IMG/VR virus record: IMGVR_UViG_2872152978_000007
Direction: 5' to 3' (one strand)
DNA: 31,815 bases
Source: a virus
Taxonomy: Duplodnaviria > Heunggongvirae > Uroviricota > Caudoviricetes
Notes under the pieces: model-generated
Database searches by the model: none
Told to the model about the DNA's origin: nothing
Seen by the model: only the letters and a program-made list of their open reading frames with translations
Shown here: in pieces, positions 1 to 21,749 of the stretch
Position numbering within the stretch: position 1 is the first letter of the stretch
Layout: each line of letters starts with the position of its first letter
Program-made: the position numbers and the translations under genes

Positions 1-381
1 ATGCAGAAAAATGTGAATCCCGGCAGGCGAAAAGGCTGCCCTAATTATCCTCCCGAATTTAAACAGCAGCTCGTTGCTGCCTCCTGTGAACCCGGGATAT
101 CCATCTCAAAACTTGCTCTTGAAAATGGCATTAACGCCAATCTGTTGTTCAAATGGCGACAACAATGGCGCGAGGGAAAGCTGCTATTACCTTCTTCAGA
201 GAGCCCCCAGCTACTTCCTGTGACTCTCGATGCAGCTGCCGAACAGCCAGAATCGCTCGCAGAGGATCCGGAAACCCTCAGTATCAGCTGTGAGGTAACG
301 TTCCGGCACGGGACGCTCCGCTTCAATGGCAATGTCAGCGAAAAGCTCCTGACTCTGCTGATACAGGAACTGAAGCGATGA
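1..381 (+). CDS. tnpA: IS66-family accessory protein TnpA (start may lie upstream of window)
   Basis: 126-aa ORF MQKNVNPGRRKGCPNYPPEFKQQLVAAS...; identical to copy-2 ORF 19801..20202 apart from the latter's 7 extra N-terminal residues. Confidence 0.85.
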   Translation: MQKNVNPGRRKGCPNYPPEFKQQLVAASCEPGISISKLALENGINANLLFKWRQQWREGKLLLPSSESPQLLPVTLDAAAEQPESLAEDPETLSISCEVTFRHGTLRFNGNVSEKLLTLLIQELKR

Positions 382-725
382 TCCCGTTACCTTCCGGGAC
401 CAAAATTTGGCTGGTTGCCGGTATCACCGATATGAGAAATGGCTTCAACGGCCTGGCGGCAAAGGTGCAGACGACGCTGAAAGACGATCCGATGTCAGGT
501 CACGTTTTTATCTTCCGTGGGCGTAATGGCAGTCAGGTAAAGCTCCTCTGGTCTACCGGCGATGGACTGTGTCTGCTGACCAAACGGCTGGAGCGCGGCC
601 GCTTCGCCTGGCCGTCAGCCCGGGATGGCAAAGTGTTCCTCACACCGGCACAGCTGGCGATGCTCCTTGAAGGTATCGACTGGCGGCAGCCTAAAAGACT
701 GCTTACGTCCCTGACTATGTTGTAA
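378..725 (+). CDS. tnpB: IS66-family TnpB
   Basis: 115-aa ORF MIPLPSGTKIWLVAGITDMRNGFNGLAAKV..., ATGA overlap with tnpA, identical to copy-2 ORF 19457..19804. Confidence 0.9.
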   Translation: MIPLPSGTKIWLVAGITDMRNGFNGLAAKVQTTLKDDPMSGHVFIFRGRNGSQVKLLWSTGDGLCLLTKRLERGRFAWPSARDGKVFLTPAQLAMLLEGIDWRQPKRLLTSLTML

Positions 726-773
726 GCCTCTTTATCCTGGTCGACGCTGAATGAGCCTGGTAATATACCCGGT

Positions 774-2311
774 ATGAGCAGCTCACTTCCTGACGATATC
801 AATGCACTGAAACGTCTCCTTGCCGAACAGGAGGCGCTGAACCGTGCCCTGCTGGAAAAGCTGAACGAGCGTGAACGCGAAATAGACCATCTGCAGGCAC
901 AGCTGGATAAGCTGCGCCGGATGAACTTCGGCAGCCGCTCCGAAAAAGTCTCCCGTCGTATCGCACAGATGGAAGCTGACCTGAAGGCACTTCAGAAAGA
1001 AAGTGATACCCTTACCGGTCGGGTTGACGACCCGGCCGTGCAGCGCCCGCTGCGTCAAACCCGCACCCGCAAACCGTTCCCCGAATCACTCCCCCGCGAT
1101 GAAAAACGGCTGCTGCCGGCAGCGTCATGCTGCCCGGAATGTGGAGGCTCACTGAGCTATCCGGGTGAGGATGCCGCCGAACAGCTGGAGTTGATGCGCA
1201 GCGTCTTCCGGGTTATCCGGACTGTACGTGAAAAGCATGCCTGTACTCAGTGCGATGCCATCGTGCAGGCCCCGCGCCTTCACGGCCCATCGAGCGGGGT
1301 ATCGCAGGACCGGGGCTGCTGGCCCGCGTGCTGATCTCAAAGTATGCAGAGCACACCCCGCTGTACCGCCAGTCTGAAATGTACGGCCGCCAGGGCGTGG
1401 AGCTGAGTCGTTCACTGCTGTCGGGCTGGGTGGATGCATGCTGCCGGCTACTGTCACCGCTGGAAGAAGCGCTTCAGGATTATGTGCTGACTGACGGTAA
1501 GCTCCATGCTGATGACACGCCTGTCCCGGTGCTGTTGCCAGGCAATAAGAAAACGAAGACCGGGCGGTTATGGACCTACGTTCGTGACGACCGTAACGCC
1601 GGGTCAACGCTGGCGCCGGCGGTGTGGTTCGCTTACAGCCCGGACAGAAAAGGCATCCATCCGCAGACCCATCTTGCGGGGTTCAGTGGTGTACTGCAGG
1701 CGGATGCATACGCCGGGTTCAACGAGCTGTACCGGGATGGCCGGATAACGGAAGCCGCCTGTTGGGCTCACGCCCGCCGTAAAATCCACGATGTGCACGT
1801 TCGCACCCCGTCAGCCCTGACGGAGGAAGCGCTGAAACGGATCGGCGAACTGTACGCCATCGAGGCAGAGATAAGGGGAATGACGGCGGAGCAGCGCCTT
1901 GCCGAACGTCAGTTGAAAACGAAACCGCTGCTGAAATCCCTGGAAAGCTGGCTGCGTGAAAAGATGAAAACCCTGTCGCGACACTCAGAACTGGCGAAAG
2001 CGTTCGCATACGCCCTGAACCAGTGGCCGGCGCTGACGTACTATGCAGATGATAGCTGGGCTGAGGCGGACAATAACATCGCTGAAAATGCGTTGCGGAT
2101 GGTCAGTCTGGGCCGCAAAAACTACCTGTTCTTCGGTTCGGATCATGGAGGAGAGCGGGGAGCGCTGCTGTACAGCCTGATCGGGACGTGCAAACTGAAC
2201 GGAGTGGAGCCAGAAAGCTACCTCCGCTATGTCCTTGACGTCATAGCCGACTGGCCGATAAACCGGGTCGGCGAACTGCTCCCCTGGCGCGTAGCACTGC
2301 CGACTGAATAA
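774..2311 (+). pseudogene. tnpC: IS66-family transposase TnpC, frameshifted
   Basis: Split into ORFs 774..1334 and 1250..2311; copy 2 has one intact 512-aa ORF (17870..19408). Copy 1 has a run of 4 C at 1270..1273 where copy 2 has 5 (G5 at 18908..18912 on the plus strand). Confidence 0.85.
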
Positions 2312-2348
2312 CACATCCCCGTCAATACGGTTCTTGCTGCACGCTTAC

Positions 2349-3492
2349 GCTGATGCTGAGTATTAACGGGAAAAGCGTCAGCATTGAAGTGAATTTTAAC
2401 GGTGTCGCCAGCTTCGCCGCTGCTGCAACGGCACTACAGACAGCGCTGACCGCAGCAGTGGCTACAGTGGTATTCGATACCACACAGAATGCTTTTGTCA
2501 TTACTGTCGCCGGGGCGAAACCCGGGAGTACCACGATAACGTTCGGCAGTGGATCGGCAGCAGAACTCCTGAAGATGACCAGTAACACCGGTGCGGTGAT
2601 ATCCCGGGGCGCGCCTGTATCTGATGTCCCTGACACAATGGCAGCCATTAAGGCCGCTTCCCAGCAATGGGCGGGTTTTTCCACGGTATCTGAGGTCACT
2701 GACGAGCAACACCTGGCGTTTTCTGCATGGGCAAACGGGCAGGGCAAGCGTTACTTTAATGTGGCATGGACAACCAGCGGCAACGCCAGAGTAAAAGGCA
2801 GTACTGAACACATCGCTTACCAGATAATTGCTGTCAATAACTACAGCTCTGTTGTACCTGTTTTCGCGACTGATGGTAACCGGGCTGCAGCGGTACTGGG
2901 GTATGCAGCGTGCCTTGATTTTATCCGACCAGAGGGGCGTGTATCATTCAAGTTCCGCGAGTATGAGGGGCTGGCCGCTGATGTTACCAGTGGCAGCGAT
3001 TATGATGCGCTGATCGCCGCAGGTTACAATTTCTACGGAAAATATGCGGAAAACAGTGTGGTGGAAGATTACTGGGCGGATGGCACTATTACCGGTGATT
3101 TTAAATGGCTGGACAGTTTCTGCGGGCAAATCTGGCTGAATGCCAGTTTGCAGGGGGCGGTGATCGCATTATTCAAGTCAAACCAGACGGTCCCCTACAA
3201 CAATGAAGGGCGGGCGCTGGTTGCAGCGTCAATGAGTGACGTTATCCAGCAGTACAAACGCTGGGGAGGGATCCGTGAAGGGGTGACACTGACGGAGGCG
3301 CAGAAGAAACAGATTAACAATGTTGTGGAGGCAGATGTTTCTTCAACGTTGTTTGCCACCGGCTATTACCTGTATATCGGCGATATGCTTCCCTCTTTGC
3401 GGGCAACCCGTAGCAGTCCGTCCTGTACGCTCTGGTACTGTGACGGCGGTAGTATCCAGAAACTTGTTATTGCATCCACGGAGGTCCAGTAA
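2349..3492 (+). pseudogene. Contractile tail sheath protein, C-terminal 378 codons (Mu gpL-like), separated from its N-terminus by IS66 insertion and inversion
   Basis: ORF begins immediately after the IS66 end; joins in frame through the 8-bp duplication GCTGATGC with the minus-strand N-terminal fragment 20274..20622, reconstructing a 494-aa protein; followed by a tube gene as in sheath-tube operons. Confidence 0.8.
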
Positions 3493-3677
3493 ATGTCGGG
3501 TAACAACAACACCATCACTGCGGCGGATGCCATTATCACGCTGACAGTGAATAATCTGTATCCCTCCGGCGTACGACTTCAGGGATTTGCAACAGATAAC
3601 GTTTATGGCACCGATCCACTGGTACTGGCGGAAACTGCCCGCGGTATTGACGGTAAACTGTCGGTAATGACTCCAAC

Positions 3678-4073
3678 TTACTGATAGTGTTTTATGTTCA
3701 GATAATGCCCGATGACCTTGTCATGCAGCTCCACCGATTTTGAGAACGACAGTGACTTCCGTCCCAGCCTTGCCAGATGTTGTCTCAGATTCAGATTATG
3801 TCGCTCAATGCGCTGAGTGTAACGCTTGCTGATAACGTGCAGCTTTCCCTTCAGGCGTGATTCATACAGCGGCCAGCCATCCGTCATCCATACCACGACC
3901 TCAAAGGCCGACAGCAGGCTCAGAAGACGCTCCAGTGTGGCCAGAGTGCGTTCACCGAAGACGTGCGCCACAACCGTCCTCCGTATCCTGTCATACGCGT
4001 AAAACAGCCAGCGCTGACGTGATTTAGCACCGACGTAGCCCCACTGTTCGTCCATTTCAGCGCAGACAATCAC
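3678..4073 (-). CDS. insB: IS1 InsB
   Basis: [31 protein letters not shown]...KHYQ. Confidence 0.9.
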
Positions 4074-4099
4074 ATCACTGCCCGGTTGTATGCGCGAGG

Positions 4100-4375
4100 T
4101 TACCGACTGCGGCCTGAGTTTTTTAAGTGACGGAAAACCGTGTTGAGGTCAACGCCCATAATGCGTGCACTGGCGCGACATCCGACGCCATTCATGGCCA
4201 TATCAATGATTTTCTGGTGCGTACCGGGCTGAGAGGCGGTGTAAGTGAACTGTAGTTGCCATGTTTTACGGCAATGAGAGCAGAGATAGCGCTGATGTCC
4301 GGCAGTGCTTTTGCCGTTACGCACCACGCCTTCAGTAGCGGAGCAGGAAGGACATCTGATGGAAATGGAAGCCAC
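4100..4375 (-). CDS. insA: IS1 InsA
   Basis: [43 protein letters not shown]... Confidence 0.9.
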
Positions 4376-4713
4376 GCAAGCACCTTAAAATCACCATCAT
4401 ACACTAAATCAGTAAGTTGGCAGCATTACCAAACTGTCCGCGGGATTTGTGTACAGCAACATTATCCAGACGTTTCATATCATGCCGGATTCCCCCAGCC
4501 GGGATATTTTTGATACCTGGTCAACCACATCCGGGCCAGTCGGGCTGTATTCCGTTGTAACGCTGTCGTCCTGCTTCCGGCGATTGGCCGTAAATATACC
4601 TGCGTGAATGGCGTACTCAAACAATGGAAAGCGCTGCCTGATGCAGCTCGTACGTTGCAGCCAGGGCAGGCGGTTATTGAGTGGGAAACCATTACTCCGG
4701 AGGTTTTTAACTG

Positions 4714-5118
4714 ATGGCCCGTAAAGAGAAATTTATCACTATTGAAGGTCAGGGACGGGATAAGGGCAAGGTATTTCATCTTACCGAAATGTCTGCCTCA
4801 CAGGCGGAATGGTGGGCGATGCGTGCCATTATGGCAATGGGGCGTGGTGGCGTGGAGTTACCGGATGATGTTCGTAGTCTGGGGATGGCTGCGCTTGCCC
4901 TTGAAGGGCTGAAAGCATTATCGAAAATTCCGCCTGATGAGGCGCGTCCGTTGATGGATGAAATGATGGACTGTGTGCAGTTTGTTCCCGATCCGAAAAA
5001 ACGCAGCATCCGGAGACCGCTTGTTGAAGAGGATATTGAAGAAATCATTACCCGTCTTAATCTGCGTGCGGAGGTCTTTAAGCTGCATGTGGATTTTTTC
5101 GCTACCGTCGTCAGCTAG
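4714..5118 (+). CDS. Tail assembly chaperone (between tube and tape measure)
   Basis: 134-aa ORF; start overlaps the upstream stop (TGATG); position and size fit the conserved chaperone of contractile/long-tailed phages. Confidence 0.55.
   Translation: MARKEKFITIEGQGRDKGKVFHLTEMSASQAEWWAMRAIMAMGRGGVELPDDVRSLGMAALALEGLKALSKIPPDEARPLMDEMMDCVQFVPDPKKRSIRRPLVEEDIEEIITRLNLRAEVFKLHVDFFATVVS
5094..5100 (+). other. Candidate -1 programmed ribosomal frameshift slippery heptamer T_TTT_TTC
   Basis: Zero-frame codons GAT TTT TTC; the -1 frame is open from here to 5342 (about 83 codons) and overlaps the tape-measure start, the G/GT-type arrangement. Confidence 0.45.
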
Positions 5119-5325
5119 ATATCCCCCCGCGTTATCTCGACCCCGACAGACCGTTCGGGGTGGTGGATTACGTTAATGTTCCCCGTACCATTGCGACCGT
5201 TATCTCCTCCGGTAAGGCTTCAAAAGCTGAACTGGATTCTGTCCTTGGTGTGCAGGACTTATGGGATCTGCTGGAAATAATTCATGTGGATGCCCATAAC
5301 GAACAGGTGATACAGGAGAACAGAA

Positions 5326-7346
5326 ATGGCGCAGGTACTTGATGAGCTTGTTCTGTCCCTCGGGATTGATGACAGGGACTTTACTGCCGGGGAACAGGCA
5401 GTACATGCTGCCCTTAACCGGCTCACGACGGTGATGGAAGGTGTCGCTGACACATTCAGTCAGGGACAGAAGAAAACCAGTGAATCACTGGAAAAAACCG
5501 GAAAAGATGCTGATAAAACGGCCCGTCGAATGGAAGATGCCGGGAAACGGGCGTCCCGTTTTTTTTCAGGAATCCGTAGCGAGATTCTGGCTCTTGCGGG
5601 TGTCAGTCTGACGCTGGGGGGGCTGAAGAACCTGGTAACAGGTTTTGCCCGTGATCTGAACCGTCTGTCCGTGGAATCCGATGCTTTTGGCATGAAGGCC
5701 AGAAATCTGGACGGATGGTTACGGGCTGCGCGGGCAAATAATGTTGATGAAGGGGAAATGTCTGGGGCATTTTCCCGGCTTGCAAATGCAAAAGCGGCCT
5801 TCAGAGCCGGAAGGTCCTTTGATCCTGTGTTACAGGATTTGTTTCAGGTTGCAGCCAGGGCGGGCATTAGTGTTGATTTAAATACTGACAGCACTGAAGC
5901 CATCATGCGCAAGCTGGCGGTTATTTTTCCGCGACTGACAAAGTCCGAACAAACTGCCTACGGCAACGCGCTGGGCTTCAGTTATGCCGGACAGCAGTTT
6001 CTTGGCTCCGGTCATGCGCTGAAAGATGTGGACGAATTTACTTCCCGTTCGCAGGTTACGCCGGGGCGTACAGCGCTGGCCCGTAAGCTACGAAAAGAGC
6101 TTGTTGAGCTCGATCAGACCTGGTCCGGCATCGGGATGACGATTAGCACCGCGTTGATGCCGTACGCGCTGAAGCTCAGCCACTGGCTGGAGACACTCGG
6201 TGACTGGATGCAGCAACATCCGGAGGAAGTGAACAGGTTTATCACCACATTTCTGAATGACGTTGAGTCAGTGGCCTCCCTAGCGAATAAGGCTGCCGGA
6301 GAACTGGGGGCTGGCAGAATGTCATTATTACGCTGATCGGGCTGAAAGTGGCGTCATGGGTGCGGGGGCTGACAAAAGCCCTCAGTGGCCCCGGAGGCCT
6401 TCTTTTTGCGATAACGGCGCTTTACCCGGTTGTTGACGGATTACTGACATCCATTGTTGGCAGGGAAAATAAGGACTGGCTGGATTCACATGGTTTTTTC
6501 TGGGCTTCAGACGGGACTTTCTTTTTCAATAAGAAAGAGATGGAGACGTATCAGACAAAACTGGATGCCGGAGAAAAGCCTGGCAACATCACCCGGGCAC
6601 AATCACCCACAGTATGGCAGCAGGGCATGCTGGATACTCAGGCTTCTCAGGCAACCGGGAGGGAAGCAGCCTTCGGTGAATCCTGGCTACAGGGTATGCG
6701 TGCGACGCAGGAAAAACTCGGTAATGCCATGCAAAACCGCCAGCGACCGACGAAGACCGGGGAAGCCCTGTTAGGCTGGCTGCAACCGAAACTGTCTCAA
6801 CTGGAGGAAAAATATAACCTGCCGCCCGGACTGCTGCGCAGCGTTGCGATCACCGAATCCCGTGGTAATCAGTTTGCCGTCTCACCTGCTGGTGCGATGG
6901 GACTGTTTCAGTTCATGCCGAAGACGGCCAGTGAATTTGGTCTGAGGGGGAACGATGCCTTTGATCCCGAAAAAGCCGCTGATGCCGCCGCGAGAAAACT
7001 TGGTGGCCTGATACGTTTTTTTCATGGCGATCTGGCTAAGGCTCTGGCGGCATATAACTGTGGAGAGGGAAATGTTCAGCGTAAGGGACTGGCTGCTGCT
7101 CCGGAGGAGACCCGCAACTATATTCCGCGGGTGCTGGCGAACCTGCCTTATCCGGGTGCGGCAATGGCCATACGGTCGCTCCATCCTGCGCCTGTATCGC
7201 AGTCCACCGTAACGGAAACCACGCATATCGGGACACTGAATGTCACCACAACGTCGGACAATGTGAAGGGTATTACCGATGACGCACGTCGGCGTATCAC
7301 GAATTCGGCGCTTGTGTCGGTTTATTCCAGCGGGGTAACAGGATGA
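5326..7346 (+). pseudogene. Tail tape measure protein with C-terminal lytic transglycosylase (SLT) domain; frameshifted near 6290..6320
   Basis: ORFs 5326..6336 and 6348..7346 in different frames; downstream frame is open back to a stop at 6288..6290; G5 run at 6306..6310; SLT motif LLRSVAITESRGNQFAVSPAGAMGLFQFMP...AYNCGEGNV in the second part. Confidence 0.65.
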
Positions 7347-8080
7347 GTTTTTCTTTCGATAATATTTCCCTGAATAACTTTTCGCTCAGTGAAAGTAACG
7401 TACTGAGTGCAGTTCGTGGCGGCTGTGTCCTGGGACTCATTAATAGTGTACTGGCACCGTCATTCGGTATTTATTACGCACGGAATGATCCGGCAGGTGC
7501 CCATCAGAAGGGTGGCAAACCTTTCTCCCCGGATTCTTTTGTTGTCGTTGAGGTGGGCGCGGAGGCTTCTGTTTCCACCGTCCCCGTGGAGCAGGGGGCT
7601 TATACCACCTTTAATAAAATCCAGAGATCGCCGGAACTGCATGTGACTTTCACTGTAGAGGGGTGGACGGCCTTTTCCGGATCCGTCCCGAACCTGACAA
7701 ATTTTTCCACCACCTCGCGGACGAATGTGCTGGAAACGCTTGAAAGGATGCGTACCACGGCAGGACTCTACGATATTGAGACGCCGGACAAGACATGGAC
7801 ATCCTGCGACCTTGTGAAATATGACTACCGAATGCGAAGTAATAATGGTCCGACCTTACTGACGGTTACTGCGGTATTTCAGACCGTAATGAATACAGGA
7901 GAGGTGTCAGTGGGAAGTACGGATAAGTCGTCTCCCACGGACAACGATAAAGCAAAAGGGGCCGCATCGGTTAAAACGCAGCCAGTTACGGCGTCGGTGA
8001 CACAACCGTCAGACGCTGACAGACGAAGCGCCACGAACAGGGGATCACCTGATGCTGGAAATTGTTTTATCTCCCGTTAA
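7343..8080 (+). CDS. Phage tail/baseplate protein (unassigned)
   Basis: 245-aa ORF, ATGA overlap with tape measure; position after tape measure in a Mu-like tail module. Confidence 0.45.
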
Positions 8081-8354
8081 AGCCCAGCAGTTTACGGTGA
8101 CACTGGGCGCTCAGGTCTGCACCATTCGCCTGAATCAGCGTACTACGGGGATGTATATCGATATCATTGTTAATGGTGAACCGTGCCTGTATGGCGTGCT
8201 GTGTCTGAATAATAACCGGATTGTCCGGTACGGATACCTGCCGTTTCAGGGGGACCTGTTTTTTACCGACACGGAGGGGAATAGTGACCCTGACTGGCGG
8301 GGGCTCGGATCCCGGTACCGGCTCTACTGGCTGTTACCTGAGGAACTGATATGA
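8052..8354 (+). CDS. Phage tail/baseplate protein (small, unassigned)
   Basis: 100-aa ORF overlapping its neighbours, typical phage operon packing. Confidence 0.4.
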
Positions 8355-9220
8355 GCTACAGACAACGTAAAATAACGGTGGAGTTCACTCTTTCAGACGG
8401 ACGAACGTTTGGTAATGGCCAGGGCAATATGCTGACCATTACCGACGCAAGCTGTTTTGCCAGTATTGCCGTATATGGAGGGGTGGCTGGTACACAAATC
8501 ACGCTGTATATCTGGGGAATGTCACCGGCGCATATGACGAATTTAAGCTGGCGCGGTGTGTGGCGACAGGAGCAGAGTACCGAAAATAAAATGCGGCTGT
8601 GGGCCGACGGGCGGCTTATTTTTGAAGGTGATATTACTGATGCATACGCCGACTACAACCAGGCGCCGGATATTCCGCTCATTCTGACAGGACAGATTCA
8701 TTTTAATCTGCGTAATCAGCCGGCGGCAGATTTCAGCGCAAAGGGCGATGTTGCGGTTGCAGATATTATCCGTGCGCTGGCGTCAACTGTCGGGCTTGGA
8801 TTTGAAAACCAGGGGGTCAGCCGCAGTCTGTCTGACCCGCATTTTTCCGGTAATGTTGTACAACAAATGCTGGATGTCGCTTCAGCCGCCGATATTAACA
8901 TTGATCTGGGGAATGTGGAGAAAGTCACCATCTGGCCGAAAGGGCAGAACCGGAATATTCCGCCGGTACTGATTTCGCCGGATCACGGACTGACTGGCTA
9001 TCCGGTTTACACCATGACCGGACTCAGCGCCACCACGATATTCTGCCCCGATCTCTTTACTGGCAGGCCAGCGCATCTGGAATCGTCACTGCCTGATATG
9101 ACGGGCGATTATACGATCACAGGGGTGATACACACCATTACTTCGCGAACCGTGGGCGGTCCGTGGAGTTCCAACTGTACCATGATGAGGGCTGAAGAAA
9201 ATGGCACAACCACTCAGTAA
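8351..9220 (+). CDS. Phage baseplate protein (unassigned)
   Basis: 289-aa ORF with ATGA overlap upstream; precedes the gpV-like spike gene. Confidence 0.5.
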
Positions 9221-9790
9221 CCCGACAGACGTGAACAGCGAAATCAATGCACAGGACTTTATGCTGCGGCAGTTTCTCGGACGTCATGCGTTTATCACTC
9301 TGGGACGGGTGGTAGCCGTGGAAGAGGGATTTATTGAGGCCCGACCGATGGTAATGGGCGTTGCAGCAGACGGTTCCCCGGTTGAACATGAGGTGATTTA
9401 TAACATTCCCGTATGGCGACTACAGGGGGGCGGTAATGCGGTGATTATCCCGCCACATGTGGGGGATATCGGTTTTCTTGCCATCTGGCTGGGTGGCGTG
9501 CTCAACGGTGATCCCGTCCAGTTTGTGGTATTTGATGACAACCAGATACGGATTGTATCTCCCTGGAAAGTGGAGATATCCGCGCCTGAGGGGGTGATTA
9601 ATGCGCCGAAAAGCTTCACCGTTAACTCACCACAAATTGCGCTGAACGGCGATACCGCCGTCAGTAAGGGGCTTGACGTTACCGGGCAGTCCAGGCTTTC
9701 CGGCGGTTCGAACATCGGGGTATTGATTTTGGAAACCACGTTCACGGCGGCGTTGAGTCCGGCGGCTCAACCACGCAGGGATCCCGGTAA
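9201..9790 (+). pseudogene. Baseplate spike/assembly protein V-like (Mu gp45 / P2 gpV family), frameshifted
   Basis: N-terminal frame runs from 9201; the C-terminus ...IDFGNHVHGGVESGGSTTQGSR (resembling the gpV C-terminal H-x-H...SGG..TG motif) is in another frame ending at the TAA at 9788..9790; switch point is the G4 run at 9717..9720. Confidence 0.6.
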
Positions 9791-9802
9791 ACAGGAGAAA
9801 AC

Positions 9803-11392: not shown

Positions 11393-11688
11393 CGTGCAGA
11401 ATGTGGCTGCCACTGTGCTTGCGCAGTATGCTGCCAGCCCCGACTCAATGCCCTCATTAACAGCTTTAACGCAGCGCTTTCCCCCGACAGTTTTATCAGT
11501 GATTTTTATGGTCTTATCTGGAACATCGATACCGCAGAAAAGTATGGTCTTGATGTCTGGGGAAAGATTGTGGGTGTCAGTCGCCGGCTGACGGTAAAGG
11601 ACGATTTTAATTACCTGGGCTTCAGCGAGTCCAGGATGGACACCCCGGTAATGGATGATCCCTGTCCGTTTAATCAGTGGATTTGCCC

Positions 11689-12594
11689 CTATATTTCCAG
11701 ACATCTGTTATCACTTAACCCATTACAAGCCCGCTGCCGCAGATATTCCCGTGGCGAGCGATAACCCAGCGCACTATGCGGATGCCATTCGTTATAATGC
11801 TCGAACGCCTCTGCAAGGTTCTTTGCTGCCGTTAACCCGTCTGGTTTGGGCATGATACTGATGTAGTCACGCTTTATCGTTTTCACGAAGCTCTCTGCTA
11901 TTCCGTTACTCTCCGGACTCCGCACCGCCGTGTTCTTCGGTTCAAGTCCCAACATCCGGGCGAACTGGCGTGTTTCATTAGCCCGGTAGCATGAACCATT
12001 ATCCGTCAGCCACTCCACTGGAGACGACGGAAGATCGTTGCCGAAGCGGCGTTCCACCGCTCCCAGCATGACGTCCTGTACTGTTTCACTGTTGAAGCCG
12101 CCGGTAGTCACCGCCCAGTGCAGTGCCTCACGATCACAGCAGTCCAGCGCGAACGTGACACGCAGTCTCTCTCCGTTATCACAGCAGAACTCGAACCCGT
12201 CAGAGCACCATCGCTGATTGCTTTCTTTCACGGCCACTCTGCCTGTATGTGCCCGTTTCGATGGCGGTACAGCAGGCTTTCGCTCAAGCAACAGCGCATT
12301 CTGGCGCATGATCCGGTAAACACGTTTGGCATTGATCGCAGGCATACCATCAAGTTCTGCCTGTCTGCGAAGCAGCGCCCATACCCGACGATAACCATAC
12401 GTGGGCAGCTCTCCGATAACATGGTGTATACGGAGAAGCACATCCGTATCATCAGTGTGACGACTGCGGCGGCCATCCATCCAGTCATCAGTTCGTCTGA
12501 GAATGACGTGCAACTGCGCACGCGACATCCGGAGACAACGGCTGACTAAGCTTACTCCCCATCCCCGGGCAATAAGGGCGCGTGCGCTATCCAC
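11689..12594 (-). CDS. insD: IS2 transposase InsD (orfB)
   Basis: 301-aa ORF ...[39 protein letters not shown]... Confidence 0.9.
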
Positions 12595-12917
12595 TTTTTT
12601 GCCCGTCCATATTCAACGGCTTCTTTGAGGTGTTCATTTTCCATCGTTTTCTTGCCGAGCAGGCGCTGGAGTTCTTTAATCTGCTTCATGGCGGCAGCAA
12701 GTTCAGAGGCAGGAACAACCTGTTCTCCGGCGGCCACAGCAGTAAGACTTCCTTCCTGGTATTGCTTACGCCAGAGAAATAACTGGCTGGCTGCTACACC
12801 ATGTTGCCGGGCAACGAGGGAGACCGTCATCCCCGGTTCAAAGCTCTGCTGAACAATTGCGATCTTTTCCTGTGTGGTACGCCGTCTGCGTTTCTCCGGC
12901 CCTAAGACATCAATCAT
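12552..12917 (-). CDS. insC: IS2 InsC (orfA)
   Basis: [56 protein letters not shown]... Confidence 0.9.
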
Positions 12918-13320
12918 CTGTACCCCAATGACTAGTCTAAAAACTAGTATTAAGACTATCACTTATTTAAGTGATACTGGTTGTCTGGAGATTCAGGGGG
13001 CCAGTCTAATCAGGCACCGTTTTACAACGGAAAATCGGATACCCGGACTGTTGACCTGTCTGATGCTGTATACCGGCGGCTGATACTGATGAAAGCCATG
13101 TCGAACATTACTGACTGTTCCGTTCCGGATATTAACCGGATGCTGAGATTTATGTTCGGAAAAAAACGGCGGGCTTATGTTCTGAATAATGGTGGGCTGA
13201 GGATGAGTTACATCTTTGAGTCCGCGCTCTCGTTGGCAGAACTGGCGATTATCCAGTCGTCGGGTGCACTGCCGTCCCCGCCGGGTGTTTATGTTTCAGT
13301 AGTTTTAAAGGAGTCCCGTA

Positions 13321-14706
13321 ATGAAGGCCAGTGATAAACCCCGCCAGCTGGCGGTCCCCTTTGCGAGTACCGGAGATAAAAACCGTATCCCGGACAAGGC
13401 GACACAGCAGACCAGAGAGAGCGGTAATGCTGCGTATGATTCAGGTTTTCCTCCGGTGACCATGACAGCGGTCTCAGCGGGAGGTATACCGCCACACGGC
13501 AAGGATTTTAACGGTCTGATGTACGATATTACCGCAGCAATACGGTTCGCCCAAGCTGGCGGTTTGTACACGTATAATGCCGGTTTTGCGGGGGCCATTG
13601 GTGGATATGCAAAAGGAGCCATTCTCGCCGGAGTCGCAACAACAGCGGTCTGGCTGAATACCACAGACGATAACCTGACCGATCCTGAAGGCTCCGACAG
13701 TGCGGGCTGGGTAAATCTTCTTGAGGATCCGAAAAGGATATTCCTGCGGCAGAAGAACAATCTGTCAGACCTTCAGAATAAAGGGACGGCACGGGATAAT
13801 CTTCAGGTTTACAGTAAAGAGCAGTCAGATCAACGCTATGTTCATCGGGAAGGCGATAAAATAACCGGAGAGCTGAAAATCCGTGGTGTTAATGCGCTGA
13901 GGATTTTCAACGAAGCTTTTGGCCTGATTTTTCGTCGTTCGGAAGAGTGCCTGCACCTTATTCCCACCAGTGAAGGTCAGGGGGAAAATGGCGATATTGG
14001 TCCCCTGCGCCCGTTCACCATTAATTTGCGGACGGGTGAAATATCCATGTCGCATAAAGTGTCTGTTGGCGGTGGTTCGCAGGTCAATGGTGCGCTGGGT
14101 ATCGGCGTTCAGAACGCCCTGGGGGGGAATTCAATTGTTCTTGGTGATAATGACACCGGATTTAAACAGAATGGAGACGGTATTCTGGATGTTTATGCTA
14201 ATAGTCAGCGTGTATTCCGCTTTCAGAATGGAGTGGCTATTGCTTTTAAGAATATTCAGGCCGGAACTGCCAGAAAATTCACGTTATCCAGCGCCAACAA
14301 CTCCACGAAAAATGCAGCGTTTTATTTGTGGGGTAATCCATCCTGGTCTGTTGTTGCAGAGCTTGGCGATGATTCAGGCTGGCATTTTTTCAGCCAGAGG
14401 AATACAGATAACAGCATCACGTTCGCCGTAAACGGACAGGTAATTCCGTTAAATTACGGAAACTTCGATGCCCGCTATAAATATCGAACAGAGGGGGTAC
14501 AGGATGTACGGTATGGCCATGAAATGTATTACAGCCCCGGCAGTAACACCGTTTCGTGGAGATTTCGCGCACCTTCGGGACACGGGCTGTCAGGGATAGC
14601 GATATCGGATACCGGCCGTGACTCAGCGGATAACGTCAACGGCGTGTATTACCGCCCGCTTCAGAAACTGATTAATGGCACCTGGTATAACGTGGCGAGT
14701 GTTTAA
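13321..14706 (+). CDS. Tail fibre protein
   Basis: 461-aa ORF with AAAGGAG ribosome-binding site; follows the gp48-like gene and precedes a tail-fibre assembly gene. Confidence 0.7.
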
Positions 14707-14884
14707 CAATGTTGCATTTAAAAAATATTACTGCGGGCAATCCGAAAACCGTGGAACAATATCAGCTGACAAAACAATATGATGTCACCTGGCTTTTTTC
14801 GGAAGACGGAAAAAACTGGTATGAAGAGCGGTGATGCTGCCAACTTACTGATTTAGTGTATGATGGTGTTTTTGAGGTGCTCCA

Positions 14885-15160
14885 GTGGCTTCTGTTTCTA
14901 TCAGCTGTCCCTCCTGTTCAGCTACTGACGGGGTGGTGCGTAACGGCAAAAGCACTGCCGGACATCAGCGCTATCTCTGCTCTCACTGCCGTAAAACATG
15001 GCAACTGCAGTTCACTTACACCGCTTCTCAACCCGGTACGCACCAGAAAATTATTGATATGGCCATGAATGGCGTTGGATGCCGGGCAACTGCACGCATT
15101 ATGGGCGTTAGCCTCAACACGATTTTACGTCACTTAAAAAACTCAGGCCGCAGTCGGTAA
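14885..15160 (+). CDS. insA: IS1 InsA
   Basis: [40 protein letters not shown]... Confidence 0.9.
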
Positions 15161-15204
15161 CCTCGCGCATACAGCCGGGCAGTGACGTCATCGTCTGCGC
15201 GGAA

Positions 15205-15582
15205 ATGGACGAACAGTGGGGATACGTCGGGGCTAAATCGCGCCAGCGCTGGCTGTTTTACGCGTATGACAGGCTCCGGAAGACGGTTGTGGCGCACGTC
15301 TTCGGTGAACGCACTATGGCGACGCTGGGGCGTCTTATGAGCTTGCTGTCACCCTTTGACGTGGTGATATGGATGACGGATGGCTGGCCACTGTATGAAT
15401 CCCGCCTGAAGGGAAAGCTGCACGTAATCAGCAAGCGATATACGCAGCGAATTGAGCGGCATAACCTGAATCTGAGGCAGCACCTGGCACGGCTGGGACG
15501 GAAGTCGCTGTCGTTCTCAAAATCGGTGGAGCTGCATGACAAAGTCATCGGGCATTATCTGAACATAAAACACTATCAATAA
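15205..15582 (+). CDS. insB: IS1 InsB
   Basis: [65 protein letters not shown]... Confidence 0.9.
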
Positions 15583-16053
15583 GTTGGAGTCATTACCTGA
15601 AGAGCTGAAGAATTTCGCCAGCGACACAATTAAAATAACTTACACCGGAGACGGTCGCGTGGTGTGGGTCGGTAAGGATGTGACAGGCATTGAACCCCGT
15701 AACGCCAGTGTTATTGAAGTTCCTGATATTACCGCCAACCGCCGCATTACCGCGCCGGGTTACTGGTTTTACCGCAATGATGAATTTGTCTTTGACTACA
15801 GACTCAAAGCGGAAGATGAGCGTGATGCCCTTCTGGCTCAGGTCAGTGCCCGGACAGGGGAATGGGAAGAAGACCTGCTGCTGGGGCTAATCAGCGACGA
15901 AGACCGGGAAAAACTGAAAGCGTACCGCATTTACGCGAAATCGCTGCAGGCGATGGATTTCAGTGTCATCACTGATAAAACCTCATACAACGCCATTGAA
16001 TGGCCCGCCTCTCCGGAAATTTCTTCCTGATTTAATTTATCGCGAGAAAAACT

Positions 16054-17466
16054 ATGTCTGTAGTGATATCAGGTGCGCTGACTGATGGCGCAGGTATCCC
16101 CATGTCCGGATACCATATTATTCTGAAATCCCGGGTAAACACCCCGGAAGTGGTGATGCACACTGTTGCTGATGTGATGACAGGAAACGATGGTGAATAC
16201 TGTTTCCATGCGCGGACTGGAAAATATGGTGTGTATCTGAAACCGGGCTGGCACAACGAGTACAACGTTGGCGACATTGCTGTATATGAGGACTCAAAGC
16301 CCGGCACGCTGAATGACTTTCTGATTGCTCCTGATGAGGGCGACCTGAAACCGGATGTCGTCAAACGCTTTGAGGAAATGGTGGTGCAGGCGCAGCAGAG
16401 CGCCGGGGCCGCAGCCGGAAACGCACAGCAGACGGCGCAGGATGTGGCGGCAGCCGCAACGGCCCGTGATGATGCACAACGTTTTGCGGAGAATGCCAGA
16501 CAGGATGCAACCGTCACAGCTGAGGACAGAAAGGCCACTGCGGAAGATGTGACAAGCACAGGAGCAAATGCAGCCGCAGCCGGACAGAGCGCACAGGATG
16601 CCGCAGGTTATGCCCGCGCAGCAGAACAGGCCAAAAATGACATTGATGCTGCGCTTACCGGCACTCTGAAAATGGCTAACCATCTGTCAGAAATCGCAGC
16701 AGCAGGCGAAAAGGCACAACAGAAGTCCCGGGATAATCTGGGGCTGAAAAGTGCGGCCACGATGGAAGCACAGAGCGACATTTACGACCGGACAAAAGGC
16801 CGTCTGGCGATACCCGGCGCATTCGGCTTTGGGTGTGCTTTTCTGCCTGAAGATGTTATCCGTTTTGACACTAAGAGTGATTTCCTGGCCTGGGTAAGGA
16901 ATGCGCTGCCAGGTGAGTATTCCGTTGCTGGCCGCCTGGGCATCATACCCGACACACGGTTTGAAGGGGTGCTCAGCATCCGGTGGACTGATGCACGCCC
17001 TGAGACAACAGAACCGCGGTACAGAGCCAAATCCCTTACTTTTTACGGCATTAACGGCCCCATTTATCACACCCGCTACTGCTACTGGCCCATATCCAGA
17101 CTGACTGACTGGGTGAAAATAAATATAACCACAGAAGATATTATTTACAGAATCGTGGCGAGCTCTGTCCGCAACAGATGGGGAGCCCCTGACATTGGCG
17201 GGCTGATTATTGCTGCGTACCAGGGAGACGCTGACGGTGATAAAGTCATCAGACTTGTCAGGGGGCAGTCATACAGAGGCTCACGACTGGGACCGGTGGG
17301 GATTTCAGTGCCCAGTACTCCCACCGGAACGTATATAGCATCCCCACAATTTTTCATTACGGGATGTTCAGAGCATTCATTACCGGGGTCATATTGCGCC
17401 CTGTCCGGGGTGCCGGATGCACATGTCTCTGGCGCAATGCCCGGGCTTTTTATTCGCACATCGTGA
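16054..17466 (+). CDS. Second tail fibre protein with lambda Stf-like N-terminal domain and Ala/Gln-rich shaft
   Basis: 470-aa ORF MSVVISGALTDGAGIPMSGYHIILKSRVNTPEVVMHTV...GDIAVYEDSKPGTLNDFL... resembling the prophage side-tail-fibre N-terminal domain. Confidence 0.65.
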   Translation: MSVVISGALTDGAGIPMSGYHIILKSRVNTPEVVMHTVADVMTGNDGEYCFHARTGKYGVYLKPGWHNEYNVGDIAVYEDSKPGTLNDFLIAPDEGDLKPDVVKRFEEMVVQAQQSAGAAAGNAQQTAQDVAAAATARDDAQRFAENARQDATVTAEDRKATAEDVTSTGANAAAAGQSAQDAAGYARAAEQAKNDIDAALTGTLKMANHLSEIAAAGEKAQQKSRDNLGLKSAATMEAQSDIYDRTKGRLAIPGAFGFGCAFLPEDVIRFDTKSDFLAWVRNALPGEYSVAGRLGIIPDTRFEGVLSIRWTDARPETTEPRYRAKSLTFYGINGPIYHTRYCYWPISRLTDWVKINITTEDIIYRIVASSVRNRWGAPDIGGLIIAAYQGDADGDKVIRLVRGQSYRGSRLGPVGISVPSTPTGTYIASPQFFITGCSEHSLPGSYCALSGVPDAHVSGAMPGLFIRTS

Positions 17467-17476
17467 GGAATGCACC

Positions 17477-17832
17477 GTGGAAATTAAAAAAATCATTAAT
17501 CCCCGTTATACCGAAAGTGGCGCAGTAGACTGTGACGTTTTTTTTGACGACAGGGACCAGGCAGTCCCCTACACAGCCACCGCTGATGATGTCGCTCCGA
17601 CGGGTCAGCAAATCTGGCAGGAACTGCAAAGCGGCAAATGGGGTGAGATAGCCCCATTCACTGTGACACCAGAAATGCAGGAAGCGGCCAGAGAGGCCAG
17701 ACGTCAGGAAATTGAAGCATGGCGCGCAGAACAGGAGGCGAAGCCGTTCACGTTTGAATGGAACGGTCGTATCTGGAATGCTGGTCCCGACTCACTGGGC
17801 CGCCTGTCCCCGGTAGTCATGCTGGCAAAATC
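17477..17832 (+). pseudogene. Tail-fibre-associated/assembly-like protein, 3' end truncated by IS66 copy 2
   Basis: GTG start with GAGG upstream; ORF runs into the IS66 terminal repeat where the IS-derived TAA terminates it. Confidence 0.4.
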
Positions 17833-17869
17833 GTAAGCGTGCAGCAAGAACCGTATTGACGGGGATGTG

Positions 17870-19408
17870 TTATTCAGTCGGCAGTGCTACGCGCCAGGGG
17901 AGCAGTTCGCCGACCCGGTTTATCGGCCAGTCGGCTATGACGTCAAGGACATAGCGGAGGTAGCTTTCTGGCTCCACTCCGTTCAGTTTGCACGTCCCGA
18001 TCAGGCTGTACAGCAGCGCTCCCCGCTCTCCTCCATGATCCGAACCGAAGAACAGGTAGTTTTTGCGGCCCAGACTGACCATCCGCAACGCATTTTCAGC
18101 GATGTTATTGTCCGCCTCAGCCCAGCTATCATCTGCATAGTACGTCAGCGCCGGCCACTGGTTCAGGGCGTATGCGAACGCTTTCGCCAGTTCTGAGTGT
18201 CGCGACAGGGTTTTCATCTTTTCACGCAGCCAGCTTTCCAGGGATTTCAGCAGCGGTTTCGTTTTCAACTGACGTTCGGCAAGGCGCTGCTCCGCCGTCA
18301 TTCCCCTTATCTCTGCCTCGATGGCGTACAGTTCGCCGATCCGTTTCAGCGCTTCCTCCGTCAGGGCTGACGGGGTGCGAACGTGCACATCGTGGATTTT
18401 ACGGCGGGCGTGAGCCCAACAGGCGGCTTCCGTTATCCGGCCATCCCGGTACAGCTCGTTGAACCCGGCGTATGCATCCGCCTGCAGTACACCACTGAAC
18501 CCCGCAAGATGGGTCTGCGGATGGATGCCTTTTCTGTCCGGGCTGTAAGCGAACCACACCGCCGGCGCCAGCGTTGACCCGGCGTTACGGTCGTCACGAA
18601 CGTAGGTCCATAACCGCCCGGTCTTCGTTTTCTTATTGCCTGGCAACAGCACCGGGACAGGCGTGTCATCAGCATGGAGCTTACCGTCAGTCAGCACATA
18701 ATCCTGAAGCGCTTCTTCCAGCGGTGACAGTAGCCGGCAGCATGCATCCACCCAGCCCGACAGCAGTGAACGACTCAGCTCCACGCCCTGGCGGCCGTAC
18801 ATTTCAGACTGGCGGTACAGCGGGGTGTGCTCTGCATACTTTGAGATCAGCACGCGGGCCAGCAGCCCCGGTCCTGCGATACCCCGCTCGATGGGCCGTG
18901 AAGGCGCGGGGGCCTGCACGATGGCATCGCACTGAGTACAGGCATGCTTTTCACGTACAGTCCGGATAACCCGGAAGACGCTGCGCATCAACTCCAGCTG
19001 TTCGGCGGCATCCTCACCCGGATAGCTCAGTGAGCCTCCACATTCCGGGCAGCATGACGCTGCCGGCAGCAGCCGTTTTTCATCGCGGGGGAGTGATTCG
19101 GGGAACGGTTTGCGGGTGCGGGTTTGACGCAGCGGGCGCTGCACGGCCGGGTCGTCAACCCGACCGGTAAGGGTATCACTTTCTTTCTGAAGTGCCTTCA
19201 GGTCAGCTTCCATCTGTGCGATACGACGGGAGACTTTTTCGGAGCGGCTGCCGAAGTTCATCCGGCGCAGCTTATCCAGCTGTGCCTGCAGATGGTCTAT
19301 TTCGCGTTCACGCTCGTTCAGCTTTTCCAGCAGGGCACGGTTCAGCGCCTCCTGTTCGGCAAGGAGACGTTTCAGTGCATTGATATCGTCAGGAAGTGAG
19401 CTGCTCAT
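17870..19408 (-). CDS. tnpC: IS66-family transposase TnpC (intact, 512 aa)
   Basis: Single [52 protein letters not shown]... Confidence 0.9.
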
Positions 19409-19456
19409 ACCGGGTATATTACCAGGCTCATTCAGCGTCGACCAGGATAAAGAGGC

Positions 19457-19804
19457 TTACAACATAGTCAGGGACGTAAGCAGTCTTTTAGGCTGCCGCC
19501 AGTCGATACCTTCAAGGAGCATCGCCAGCTGTGCCGGTGTGAGGAACACTTTGCCATCCCGGGCTGACGGCCAGGCGAAGCGGCCGCGCTCCAGCCGTTT
19601 GGTCAGCAGACACAGTCCATCGCCGGTAGACCAGAGGAGCTTTACCTGACTGCCATTACGCCCACGGAAGATAAAAACGTGACCTGACATCGGATCGTCT
19701 TTCAGCGTCGTCTGCACCTTTGCCGCCAGGCCGTTGAAGCCATTTCTCATATCGGTGATACCGGCAACCAGCCAAATTTTGGTCCCGGAAGGTAACGGGA
19801 TCAT
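19457..19804 (-). CDS. tnpB: IS66-family TnpB
   Basis: 115-aa ORF identical to 378..725. Confidence 0.9.
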   Translation of the reverse strand: MIPLPSGTKIWLVAGITDMRNGFNGLAAKVQTTLKDDPMSGHVFIFRGRNGSQVKLLWSTGDGLCLLTKRLERGRFAWPSARDGKVFLTPAQLAMLLEGIDWRQPKRLLTSLTML

Positions 19805-20202
19805 CGCTTCAGTTCCTGTATCAGCAGAGTCAGGAGCTTTTCGCTGACATTGCCATTGAAGCGGAGCGTCCCGTGCCGGAACGTTACCTCACAGCTGATA
19901 CTGAGGGTTTCCGGATCCTCTGCGAGCGATTCTGGCTGTTCGGCAGCTGCATCGAGAGTCACAGGAAGTAGCTGGGGGCTCTCTGAAGAAGGTAATAGCA
20001 GCTTTCCCTCGCGCCATTGTTGTCGCCATTTGAACAACAGATTGGCGTTAATGCCATTTTCAAGAGCAAGTTTTGAGATGGATATCCCGGGTTCACAGGA
20101 GGCAGCAACGAGCTGCTGTTTAAATTCGGGAGGATAATTAGGGCAGCCTTTTCGCCTGCCGGGATTCACATTTTTCTGCATATCTGACACTTTGGTTCCC
20201 AC
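19801..20202 (-). CDS. tnpA: IS66-family TnpA
   Basis: 133-aa ORF MGTKVSDMQKNVNPGRRKGCPNYPPEFKQQL... Confidence 0.85.
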   Translation of the reverse strand: MGTKVSDMQKNVNPGRRKGCPNYPPEFKQQLVAASCEPGISISKLALENGINANLLFKWRQQWREGKLLLPSSESPQLLPVTLDAAAEQPESLAEDPETLSISCEVTFRHGTLRFNGNVSEKLLTLLIQELKR

Positions 20203-20273
20203 TACTTATTTGGTGGACACCACTTTGTCTAATTCGTCAGATTCTGACCAGACGGTTCAGGCTGTACGCTTAC

Positions 20274-20622
20274 GCATCAGCGTGCCGGAAAGTTTTTGTA
20301 GCTGTTCAACAGTCGCGCCCTTAAACGAACCGCTACGTAACCAGGCCGCCGATGGGGCAGGACTGAAACGGGAAAACAACAATTGCCCCGGCGTCCTGGT
20401 GGCATTTTTGAAGCCCTGGAAATAAAGCTGAGCGCGTGCGTACTCATCGGATAATGCACCAAAATACGCGGCCACATCATCCGGAGAGGAAAACGGAACC
20501 ACAGTGCCGACCGGAAGTAACGGATTACTGGTCAACAGCAGGCCGTTAAGATCGACGGCATTACCCGCCACAGCCAGCACACCGGGATTTATCTGTACAT
20601 CTTTACTGAGTGGAATTGGCAT
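20274..20622 (-). pseudogene. Contractile tail sheath protein, N-terminal 116 codons
   Basis: ATG at 20622 with GGAGG upstream; MPIPLSKDVQINPGVLAVAGNAVDLNGLL...KLSGTLM reads directly into the IS66 terminus; the 8 bp at 20274..20281 (GCATCAGC) are the exact reverse complement of 2349..2356. Confidence 0.8.
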
Positions 20623-21498: not shown

Positions 21499-21749
21499 TT
21501 TTTGCCCCCGTCTACAGAATAATCAACGCTGTCCATCATATGTCCGGTTTCAATAAGCGGGTTGTTAAAACCCTTTTGCCGGGCAGTGGATGCAGCGTTG
21601 GACGGACTTTCCCAGTCGCGAACAGACATCTGCAACTGCCCTTTGATATGTTCTCCCATACACACCAGAGCGGTCGCAGTATCAAAATCATTCGCCCGTA
21701 ATAAGGTCGCCATTTTTTCGCCCCATTCGGGACTTTTATGTTCGATCAT
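21495..21749 (-). CDS. Phage structural-module protein (unassigned)
   Basis: 84-aa ORF with ATGA-type overlap. Confidence 0.45.
   Translation of the reverse strand: MIEHKSPEWGEKMATLLRANDFDTATALVCMGEHIKGQLQMSVRDWESPSNAASTARQKGFNNPLIETGHMMDSVDYSVDGGKK

Follow-up and report, generated by a model that had tools for sequence, protein, structure and literature searches.

Recombination between inverted repeats yields inversions, and in Shigella those produced by homologous recombination between inverted copies of insertion sequences (IS) have been catalogued, S. dysenteriae being noted as an inversion-rich lineage and the IS1, IS3, IS4 and IS91 families as enriched in all Shigella (PMC8072062). In phages, a case of a tail-gene segment bordered by inverted repeats, and found in two orientations among strains, is that of the programmed invertible Mu G and P1 C segments (Gin/Cin invertases). 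As for the IS66 family, it reportedly consists of tnpA-tnpB-tnpC elements that generate 8-bp target duplications, and GTAAGCG is its typical terminal motif.

The DNA under study (the window, i.e. the whole stretch of 31,815 nt that was analysed) belongs to the chromosome of a Shigella dysenteriae ATCC strain, CP026840.1 (organism name from PMC12679885), with which positions 1..13492 share 100% identity (13,492 bases compared); a look-up of its 461-aa tail-fibre protein returned this source genome only. It is an IS-riddled remnant of an ipaH-type, E217-like myovirus prophage, which has lost its head genes (terminase, portal and capsid are gone) and has IS1, IS2, IS600 and IS66 insertions in its decayed tail module. 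The features that matter here are the following.

1..2348, plus strand: ISEc22-like IS66-family element, copy 1, an inverted-repeat arm delimited by direct reading, with its left end in the source genome (L005); tnpA 1..381, tnpB 378..725, tnpC in two pieces, 774..1334 and 1250..2311
2349..2356, plus strand: GCTGATGC, one copy of the sheath-insertion target duplication
2349..3492, plus strand: tail-sheath C-terminal fragment, codons about 117-494
2349..17832, plus strand: inverted segment of 15,484 bp with the sheath C-terminus, tube, tape measure, baseplate, tail fibres and a truncated DUF4376 gene
3663..4430: IS1, in the inverted segment
11678..13008: IS2, in the inverted segment
14830..15597: IS1, in the inverted segment, private to the CP026840.1 strain when compared with its relatives
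17423..17832, plus strand: N-terminal part of a DUF4376 gene of the tail-fibre region, cut off by IS66 copy 2
17825..17832, plus strand: GCAAAATC, target octamer of the second IS66 site (site 'a')
17833..20273, minus strand: ISEc22-like IS66-family element, copy 2, complete (2441 bp); tnpC 17870..19408, tnpB 19457..19804, tnpA 19801..20181/20202
20274..20281, minus strand: GCATCAGC, the other copy of that sheath-insertion duplication, now inverted and the exact reverse complement of GCTGATGC
20274..20622, minus strand: tail-sheath N-terminal fragment, 116 codons plus 1 nt
20603..22888, minus strand: genes preceding the sheath (tail terminator, E217 gp28-like, gp27-like and one small ORF), in their original orientation

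Two IS66 copies and a sheath gene in two halves

Copy 2 has consecutive tnpA (HTH), tnpB and DDE tnpC genes, the three-ORF organisation of the IS66 family, with the corresponding Pfam matches (PF01527, PF05717 and PF03050 + PF13817 + PF13007 + PF13005). Both of its termini start with GTAAGCG and form imperfect inverted repeats (IRL GTAAGCGTACAGCC..., IRR GTAAGCGTGCAGCA...), and over 2441 bp the element shares 99.7% identity with copies that PGAP labels 'IS66-like element ISEc22 family transposase'. Copy 1 is short of its first 92 nt solely because the window begins there; these lie just beyond the edge, and the left end is seen in the source genome. Over the 2348 nt in common in the window, the two copies differ by a single C that is missing from a C5 run of copy 1 (at about window position 1270), which splits its tnpC and is possibly a sequencing error. 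The arm ends given by the repeat tool (2356/17825) lie 8 bp beyond the true ends of the IS; on direct reading, only 5/8 of these positions match.

The octamers that abut the inner end of copy 1 (2349..2356) and the outer end of copy 2 (20274..20281), which an earlier note had described as exact reverse complements, proved to be so on direct reading, a match expected by chance at two pre-specified positions with a frequency of 4^-8 (about 1.5e-5). These ends lie in the two halves of one gene. Once the reverse complement of 20274..20622 is joined to 2357..3492, the result is an open, in-frame sequence of 494 codons, and the rejoined product is a full-length contractile-tail sheath of the E217-gp31 type: residues 6-491 match positions 2-492 of the 493 in the Pfam profile PF11863 (DUF3383 / E217_gp31_N; E = 2e-138), and solved sheaths, i.e. 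phage E217 gp31 (8env, 8fuv, 8fvg) and 9b42 gp32, are matched with E about 1e-15. The 494-aa reading of the earlier note thus stands, both by translation and by this end-to-end match. The called ORF of the N-terminal half (20257..20622) runs 17 nt into the IS; similarly, a called 137-aa ORF (17423..17836) is the remnant of the DUF4376 gene.

Comparison with uninterrupted sheath genes, which had been proposed as a check, gave a clear answer. In EIEC prophages (L001 and L002, two genomes), the homologues show 99.6% identity in a comparison of the C-terminal 1144 nt, and their intact gene, flanked by those of the tail terminator and the tube (Pfam names of neighbours), has a single GCTGATGC exactly at the join.

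Linkage of the IS copies in related genomes

The ancestral interrupted state, sheathN-GCTGATGC-(IS66, tnpA tnpB tnpC)-GCTGATGC-sheathC on one strand, is found in 9/10 long assemblies listed, and the loci with this simple sheath insertion between GCTGATGC direct repeats are L003, L004 and L016-L025. That an IS66 element entered the sheath gene and duplicated 8 bp, as originally claimed, is therefore directly visible in nine other long assemblies. To the left of the sheath IS66, three different partners are seen, namely the sheath N-terminus, zitB and the interior of an IS3-family element (CDC 74-1112).

The second site is equally well documented. It is empty in the intact EIEC prophage L001, where GCAAAATC occurs once, and in CP026842.1 (L029) the second IS is a simple insertion with GCAAAATC on both sides (in full, gctgGCAAAATC-(IS, inverted)-GCAAAATCtgtc, beyond which come the C-terminal part of DUF4376 and an ipaH NEL domain). 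The 8-bp direct duplication is thus confirmed at two independent sites (GCTGATGC and GCAAAATC), each octamer being single in its empty site, so that this property of IS66 is demonstrated directly from genomes. Two un-inverted relatives (L003+L011 and L004+L012) have, besides the sheath IS, another IS66 in inverted orientation at the tail-fibre site GCAAAATC. In these closest un-inverted relatives the flanks of the partner IS are already unlike, with GCAAAATC on one side and the region upstream of zitB on the other: L011 and L012 read DUF4376N-GCAAAATC-(437-nt fragment)(complete IS)-AGTTAAGT-zitB. The corresponding empty site lies in the zitB-ybgS spacer of K-12 (...ctcACTTAACT/ttatgac).

The window differs from this arrangement by its linkage, which reads zitB-ACTTAACT-(IS)-GCTGATGC-sheathC ... 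DUF4376N-GCAAAATC-(IS)-GCATCAGC-sheathN. The claim that 2349..17832 had been flipped, with breakpoints inside two inverted IS copies, is upheld by two alignments. Against the intact EIEC prophage L001, 2349..17832 is colinear with 19999..33273 on the plus strand and the flank 20274..22895 on the minus strand; against an un-inverted relative, the window with its left flank aligns as a middle block on the plus strand and two flanks on the minus strand, with the switches within the IS copies. By contrast, the prediction that the 8 bp left of copy 1 would read GATTTTGC failed when the upstream flank was read in the source genome. This flank is ACTTAACT, located 33 bp upstream of chromosomal zitB, and is neither GATTTTGC nor GCTGATGC, because the partner IS had ceased to be a simple insertion before the flip took place. 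All four octamers (ACTTAACT, GCTGATGC, GCAAAATC and GCATCAGC) read alike in the inverted and un-inverted arrangements, and only linkage across the IS is swapped.

Among the ten long assemblies listed, inverted linkage is found in CP026840.1 alone, and the evidence for it is that of one long-read assembly correctly spanning two 2.4-kb repeats, since a crossover inside the IS leaves every junction unchanged and short-read drafts cannot confirm it. Nor can the crossover point be mapped, because the SNPs at IS positions 579, 1573, 2147 and 2326 are common to both copies of a genome and vary from one genome to the other (the window and the complete copies of GCA_002968215.1), a pattern that reflects either gene conversion or repeat-blind polishing. 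Finally, the window has no counterpart of the 437-nt IS right-end fragment that adjoins the second copy in its closest relatives. Recombination between tandem direct repeats presumably removed it, and, since it is not eliminated by any single crossover, one must assume either a further small event or an ancestor that differed slightly.

A proposed stepwise history and its alternatives

A four-step history, which we consider probable, would account for this arrangement. (i) An ISEc22-like IS66 entered the tail-sheath gene at codon about 117, duplicating GCTGATGC, as is seen in relatives, and (ii) a second copy entered the DUF4376 gene about 15.5 kb downstream in the opposite orientation, duplicating GCAAAATC, as is likewise seen. 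(iii) An earlier IS66-associated rearrangement may then have swapped the outer flank of the second copy for the zitB-ybgS intergenic region (octamer ACTTAACT), which would have joined the tail end of the prophage to zitB-pnuC-nadA-tolB; the junction is observed, and the event is deduced from it. (iv) In the lineage of the CP026840.1 strain, one homologous-recombination crossover between the 2.4-kb inverted IS copies would have flipped 2349..17832, leaving the four IS/flank junctions intact and exchanging their linkage, an arrangement that is observed and from which the mechanism is deduced. The history proposed in the earlier note, a sheath insertion followed by inversion between inverted copies, is retained in these two respects; its simple GCAAAATC-flanked partner is not, and with the zitB-side step the history has at least one IS66-mediated step more than was proposed.

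What points to inversion by recombination is the combination of long near-identical inverted repeats, the prior existence of both copies in genomes of the opposite orientation, and junctions that are kept while their linkage is swapped. Since un-inverted relatives have both IS copies at the same two sites, homologous recombination is sufficient and transposition is not needed; the flip would presumably have depended on host recombination (RecA) and not on the transposase. It is conceivable, if unlikely, that the two IS66 copies form a reversible and often-used recombination joint, with orientations maybe coexisting in culture and the sheath IS66 acting as a multiply re-linked hotspot, in which case linkage states could offer strain typing a quick structural marker.

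Alternatively, the flip might have come first, with a simple GCAAAATC-flanked IS and leaving GATTTTGC, and recombination of copy 1 with a zitB IS66 might have brought ACTTAACT later. The precursor that this order requires does exist in CP026842.1, where both IS are simple insertions in inverted orientation with their own 8-bp duplications, and the GCAAAATC-site IS of that genome is, like copy 1 of the window, without one C in the same C5 run. However, this shared absence is weak evidence, as the sheath IS of CP026842.1 is also without the same C and the assembly is indel-rich. Above all, the GCAAAATC-IS-zitB linkage is already present in un-inverted relatives, so that a flip-first order would require two independent recruitments of the zitB junction, which makes it distinctly improbable. 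The one-base tnpC deletion of copy 1 was also considered as a lineage marker in its own right and rejected, since every single-base indel that separates the window from the relative is a loss from a run of G or C, which looks like long-read homopolymer error.

Those same homopolymer deletions, which are many in CP026840.1 and indicate that the assembly was not carefully polished, could be held to favour an artefact or a mixed culture, in which the true or majority genome would be un-inverted and reads misjoined across identical 2.4-kb IS copies; that only 1/10 long assemblies listed has the linkage goes in the same direction. Yet long reads able to close an IS-rich chromosome of 4.7 Mb easily span a 2.4-kb repeat, the 437-nt fragment is missing at the same junction and would not be deleted by a simple mis-join, and the strain has a private IS1 (14830..15597). 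We therefore regard an artefact as very improbable.

Barely credible is a one-step intramolecular replicative transposition, by which a single IS66 would make a second, inverted copy together with the inversion and split a new duplication in inverted form. It predicts the same junctions, with an octamer at the inner end of one copy and its reverse complement at the outer end of the other, but un-inverted genomes hold both copies at both sites, either site is known in simple-insertion form with its 8 bp directly repeated, and no new IS copy is therefore required at the flip. A programmed switch of the Gin/Cin/Hin type was rejected outright, as the end repeats are the IS copies alone and no serine or tyrosine recombinase gene was found among the called genes in and beside 1..20622, whose Pfam families are phage structural and IS transposase ones.

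Meaning and comparison with known systems

Returning to the stepwise history, the inversion is a real but ordinary rearrangement for Shigella, and the flip is functionally without consequence because it affects a sheath gene that had been inactivated beforehand, in a prophage with no terminase, portal or capsid genes left. It has little biological weight, and its value is that of a clean, fully documented case of stepwise IS-driven decay, for which different sequenced strains still show every stage, from empty sites through simple insertions and a hybrid-flank intermediate to the final inversion. Two cautions follow: reverse-complement target octamers identify two IS ends as the former borders of one insertion and are silent on what adjoins the other end of either IS copy, and inversions of this type are invisible to short-read assemblies.

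The element itself is a regular member of the ISEc22 group of the IS66 family, alike in size, ORFs, termini and 8-bp duplications, with no notable difference. The tail module of Pseudomonas phage E217 (gp27, gp28, terminator, sheath gp31, tube gp32 and gp41 hub) shares its order and Pfam families with the intact EIEC prophage and with the fragments in the window; unlike it, the Shigella version is a decayed prophage remnant with IS insertions and deleted head genes. What the window has in common with Mu G and P1 C is the bordered tail-gene segment and its two orientations, whereas it has neither an invertase gene nor short crossover sites, its repeats are whole IS elements, and its flip swaps no alternative gene ends but merely parts the halves of a dead gene. 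A further parallel is with the catalogued Shigella inversions (PMC8072062), with which the window shares a segment bounded by identical inverted IS copies, octamers that are kept and re-paired, and strain specificity within S. dysenteriae. It departs from them in scale, since it covers 15.5 kb wholly between a prophage remnant and zitB instead of the usual replichore-scale segments, in being mediated by an IS66-family (ISEc22-like) element and not by the enriched IS1/IS3/IS4/IS91, and in having one partner copy whose flanks were unlike beforehand.

An IS66 pair and the two halves of a sheath gene

Over positions 1..13492 the window is identical to chromosome CP026840.1 (GCA_002950155.1, 4,716,399 bp), an assembly that a paper assigns, with this length, to an ATCC strain of Shigella dysenteriae (PMC12679885). 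A repeat scan of the window found a long inverted repeat with arms 1..2356 and 17825..20181, within which the true limits of the insertion sequence (IS), read directly from its ends, are 2348 and 17833; the outward 8 bp agree at only 5/8 positions.

IS66 copies, flanking octamers and sheath fragments
1..2348: IS66 copy 1, same element as copy 2, its first 92 nt cut by the window start
2349-2356: octamer GCTGATGC, beside the inner end of copy 1
2349..3492, plus: C-terminal sheath fragment
17825-17832: octamer GCAAAATC, beside copy 2
17833..20273: IS66 copy 2, complete element, 2441 bp
20274-20281: octamer GCATCAGC, reverse complement of GCTGATGC
20274..20622, minus: N-terminal sheath fragment

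Copy 2, which is 99.7% identical to Escherichia coli elements annotated as ISEc22 family, has three ORFs with IS66-family Pfam domains (tnpA, tnpB and tnpC) and two termini that both start with GTAAGCG; copy 1 is one C short within a C5 run, and its tnpC is split as a result. Direct reading of the window gave the octamers at 2349-2356 and 20274-20281 just as the earlier note had described them, the second being the reverse complement of the first. That note had also taken the two sheath fragments to be halves of one gene, and so they are. The reverse complement of 20274..20622 joined to 2357..3492 is an open frame of 494 codons. Its full length matches Pfam PF11863 (DUF3383, also E217_gp31_N; E = 2e-138), and it also matches tail-sheath proteins of known structure from phage E217 and a relative (E about 1e-15). 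In the collection searched, the whole 1144-nt C-terminal fragment occurs at 99.5-99.6% identity in seven E. coli genomes, including enteroinvasive E. coli (EIEC) CFSAN029787, and in both of the two whose annotation was read the sheath gene is intact, sitting between the tail-terminator and tube genes of an ipaH-carrying prophage. The intact EIEC prophages L001 and L002 give the comparison with an uninterrupted gene that the note had proposed: in each, a single GCTGATGC sits precisely at the sheath join.

Un-inverted relatives and the partner copy

Contigs in the ancestral state were drawn from exact-protein look-ups with the C-terminal sheath ORF, and in the long contigs of related strains (L003 and L004) the N-terminal fragment, a complete IS66 and the C-terminal fragment all lie on one strand, with GCTGATGC as a direct repeat flanking the IS. 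A look-up of the 121-aa N-terminal sheath protein found this arrangement in nine of ten long assemblies among the matches listed, the tail-fibre genes lying across the IS from the N-terminal fragment only in CP026840.1. The insertion into the sheath gene is hence an old, shared one, and the flipped arrangement, seen in that one assembly, is private to its strain. Short-read drafts cannot test the flip, since all four junctions are unchanged by it.

When the window and its left flank are aligned with an un-inverted relative, the IS through 2349..17832 is colinear, whereas the tolB-zitB-IS block and the block running from the IS through the N-terminal sheath fragment and upstream are both reversed, with the switches inside the IS copies; comparison with the intact EIEC prophage gives the same inversion. 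The core of the earlier interpretation, an IS66 insertion into the sheath gene followed by recombination between inverted copies, is thus right and documented by comparator genomes. Its prediction for the octamer on the left of copy 1 was wrong: GATTTTGC was expected, and the source genome reads ACTTAACT, which precedes the start codon of zitB by 33 bp. The prediction failed because the partner IS was no longer a simple insertion at the time of the flip, owing to an earlier IS66-associated rearrangement.

The junction left by this rearrangement is visible in the closest un-inverted relatives, GCA_002968215.1 and GCA_002968235.1, whose tail genes continue to a truncated DUF4376 gene followed by GCAAAATC, a 437-nt IS66 right-end fragment, a complete IS66 oriented opposite to the sheath copy, AGTTAAGT and zitB, then pnuC, nadA, cpoB, pal and tolB. 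The DUF4376 site of CP026842.1 holds a simple IS66 insertion with GCAAAATC on either side, the remainder of the gene and an ipaH NEL domain lying beyond the second octamer. The empty sites carry a single octamer each, GCAAAATC in the EIEC prophage and ACTTAACT in the zitB-ybgS spacer of K-12. Had the sheath IS recombined in one crossover with the zitB-linked IS seen in the relatives, the outcome would be exactly the ACTTAACT/zitB flank found left of copy 1.

The 437-nt fragment (L011 11780..12216 and L012 11780..12216, the relatives' DUF4376-IS-zitB loci) lies between zitB and the GCAAAATC site, abutting the right end of the complete IS66, and is absent from both IS66 copies of the window. No single crossover removes it; the simplest extra step would be that recombination between tandem direct repeats deleted this short piece, unless it was gained by the relatives alone. 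It bears the window's SNP alleles, unlike the complete IS66 copies adjoining it, and looks like what is left of a nested insertion or of an event targeted at the IS end.

Decay of the prophage

No functional consequence of the flip is evident, because the sheath gene was already interrupted, other tail genes carry ISs (IS1 in the tube gene, IS2 in the baseplate wedge gene, IS1 in the tail-fibre assembly gene) and head genes are missing. The loss, next to IS600 copies, amounts to ~9-10 kb that in the EIEC prophage runs from the IS600 position to L001 17404 and holds the lysis, terminase, portal and capsid genes.

Other features of the window
3663..4430: IS1 in the tube gene, flanks AAACTGTC, common to relatives
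11678..13008: IS2-type element, 1331 bp, two minus-strand ORFs (121 aa and 301 aa), 5-bp duplication ATCAG within the DUF2612/wedge baseplate gene, common to relatives
14830..15597: IS1 in the tail-fibre assembly gene, flanks TGAAGAGC, lacking in the closest relatives
22898..25292: two partial IS3-family copies, inverted, about 720 nt each
24134..24444, minus: four tRNA genes (ARAGORN: Gly-TCC, Thr-TGT, Arg-TCT, CAT)
25447..25822 and 31440..31815: inverted repeat, 376 nt, 99%, extending to the window end
26160..26927: IS1, flanks without match
about 27209..28473: complete IS600
28532..29236: Rha/Ash regulator
30150..30557: cI-like HTH repressor
30846..31268: YdaT-like protein

The IS1 at 14830..15597 is a different isoform, since it shares only 91% identity with the others, and that at 26160..26927 is probably rearranged, given its unmatched flanks. 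The partial IS3-family copies, at whose equivalent positions un-inverted relatives have rve-domain ORFs, enclose a 956-bp piece with a phage holin gene and the four tRNA genes. As the 376-nt repeat is the orfA end (HTH_Tnp_1) of an IS3-family element, another inverted IS pair brackets 25823..31439. Lambdoid early-region and integrase remnants, including an integrase N-terminal fragment, occupy 25730..26173 and 28532..31268. In S. dysenteriae CDC 74-1112 (L006 1..1229, a draft contig homologous to window 25417..25821), the left flank of the IS66 linked to the C-terminal sheath fragment is of yet another, third type and lies within an IS3-family element (octamer TCCTGTGG); this IS66 may have been re-linked again, or the contig may be chimeric.

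All single-base indels between the window and a relative are deletions in G or C runs of the window (about 1270, 6306, 8040, 9717, 9934, 11438, 21773, 22137 and 23551), the one behind the 'frameshift' in the tnpC of copy 1 among them, and may reflect errors in the long-read consensus, not genuine pseudogenes. Such deletions are probably behind the split tape-measure gene (5326..6336 and 6348..7346; 673 aa in relatives) and other split ORFs. Larger differences are ~78 bp deleted at 9479..9487 in the spike gene (9201..9899), relative to the EIEC prophage and a related strain, and 18 extra nt of CGATAC hexamer repeats at 22257..22274 in a gp27-like gene, relative to a related strain.

Mechanism of the inversion

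In un-inverted genomes IS66 copies pre-exist at both sites, and each site also occurs with a simple insertion bounded by its direct 8-bp duplication. Homologous recombination between the 2.4-kb inverted repeats, which we infer to depend on RecA, is therefore enough to explain the flip. One-step intramolecular transposition, which would be expected to leave the same octamer pattern, is unnecessary here and contradicted by the relatives. The crossover point is not mappable, because at the four SNP positions of the IS the copies of one genome carry the same alleles and those of another genome different ones, a pattern that could come from gene conversion or from repeat-blind polishing. Recombination between inverted IS copies is the standard route to inversions in IS-rich genomes, and a survey places IS66 among the IS families specific to some Shigella lineages (PMC8072062); the process is well known, and this inversion is an ordinary case of it.
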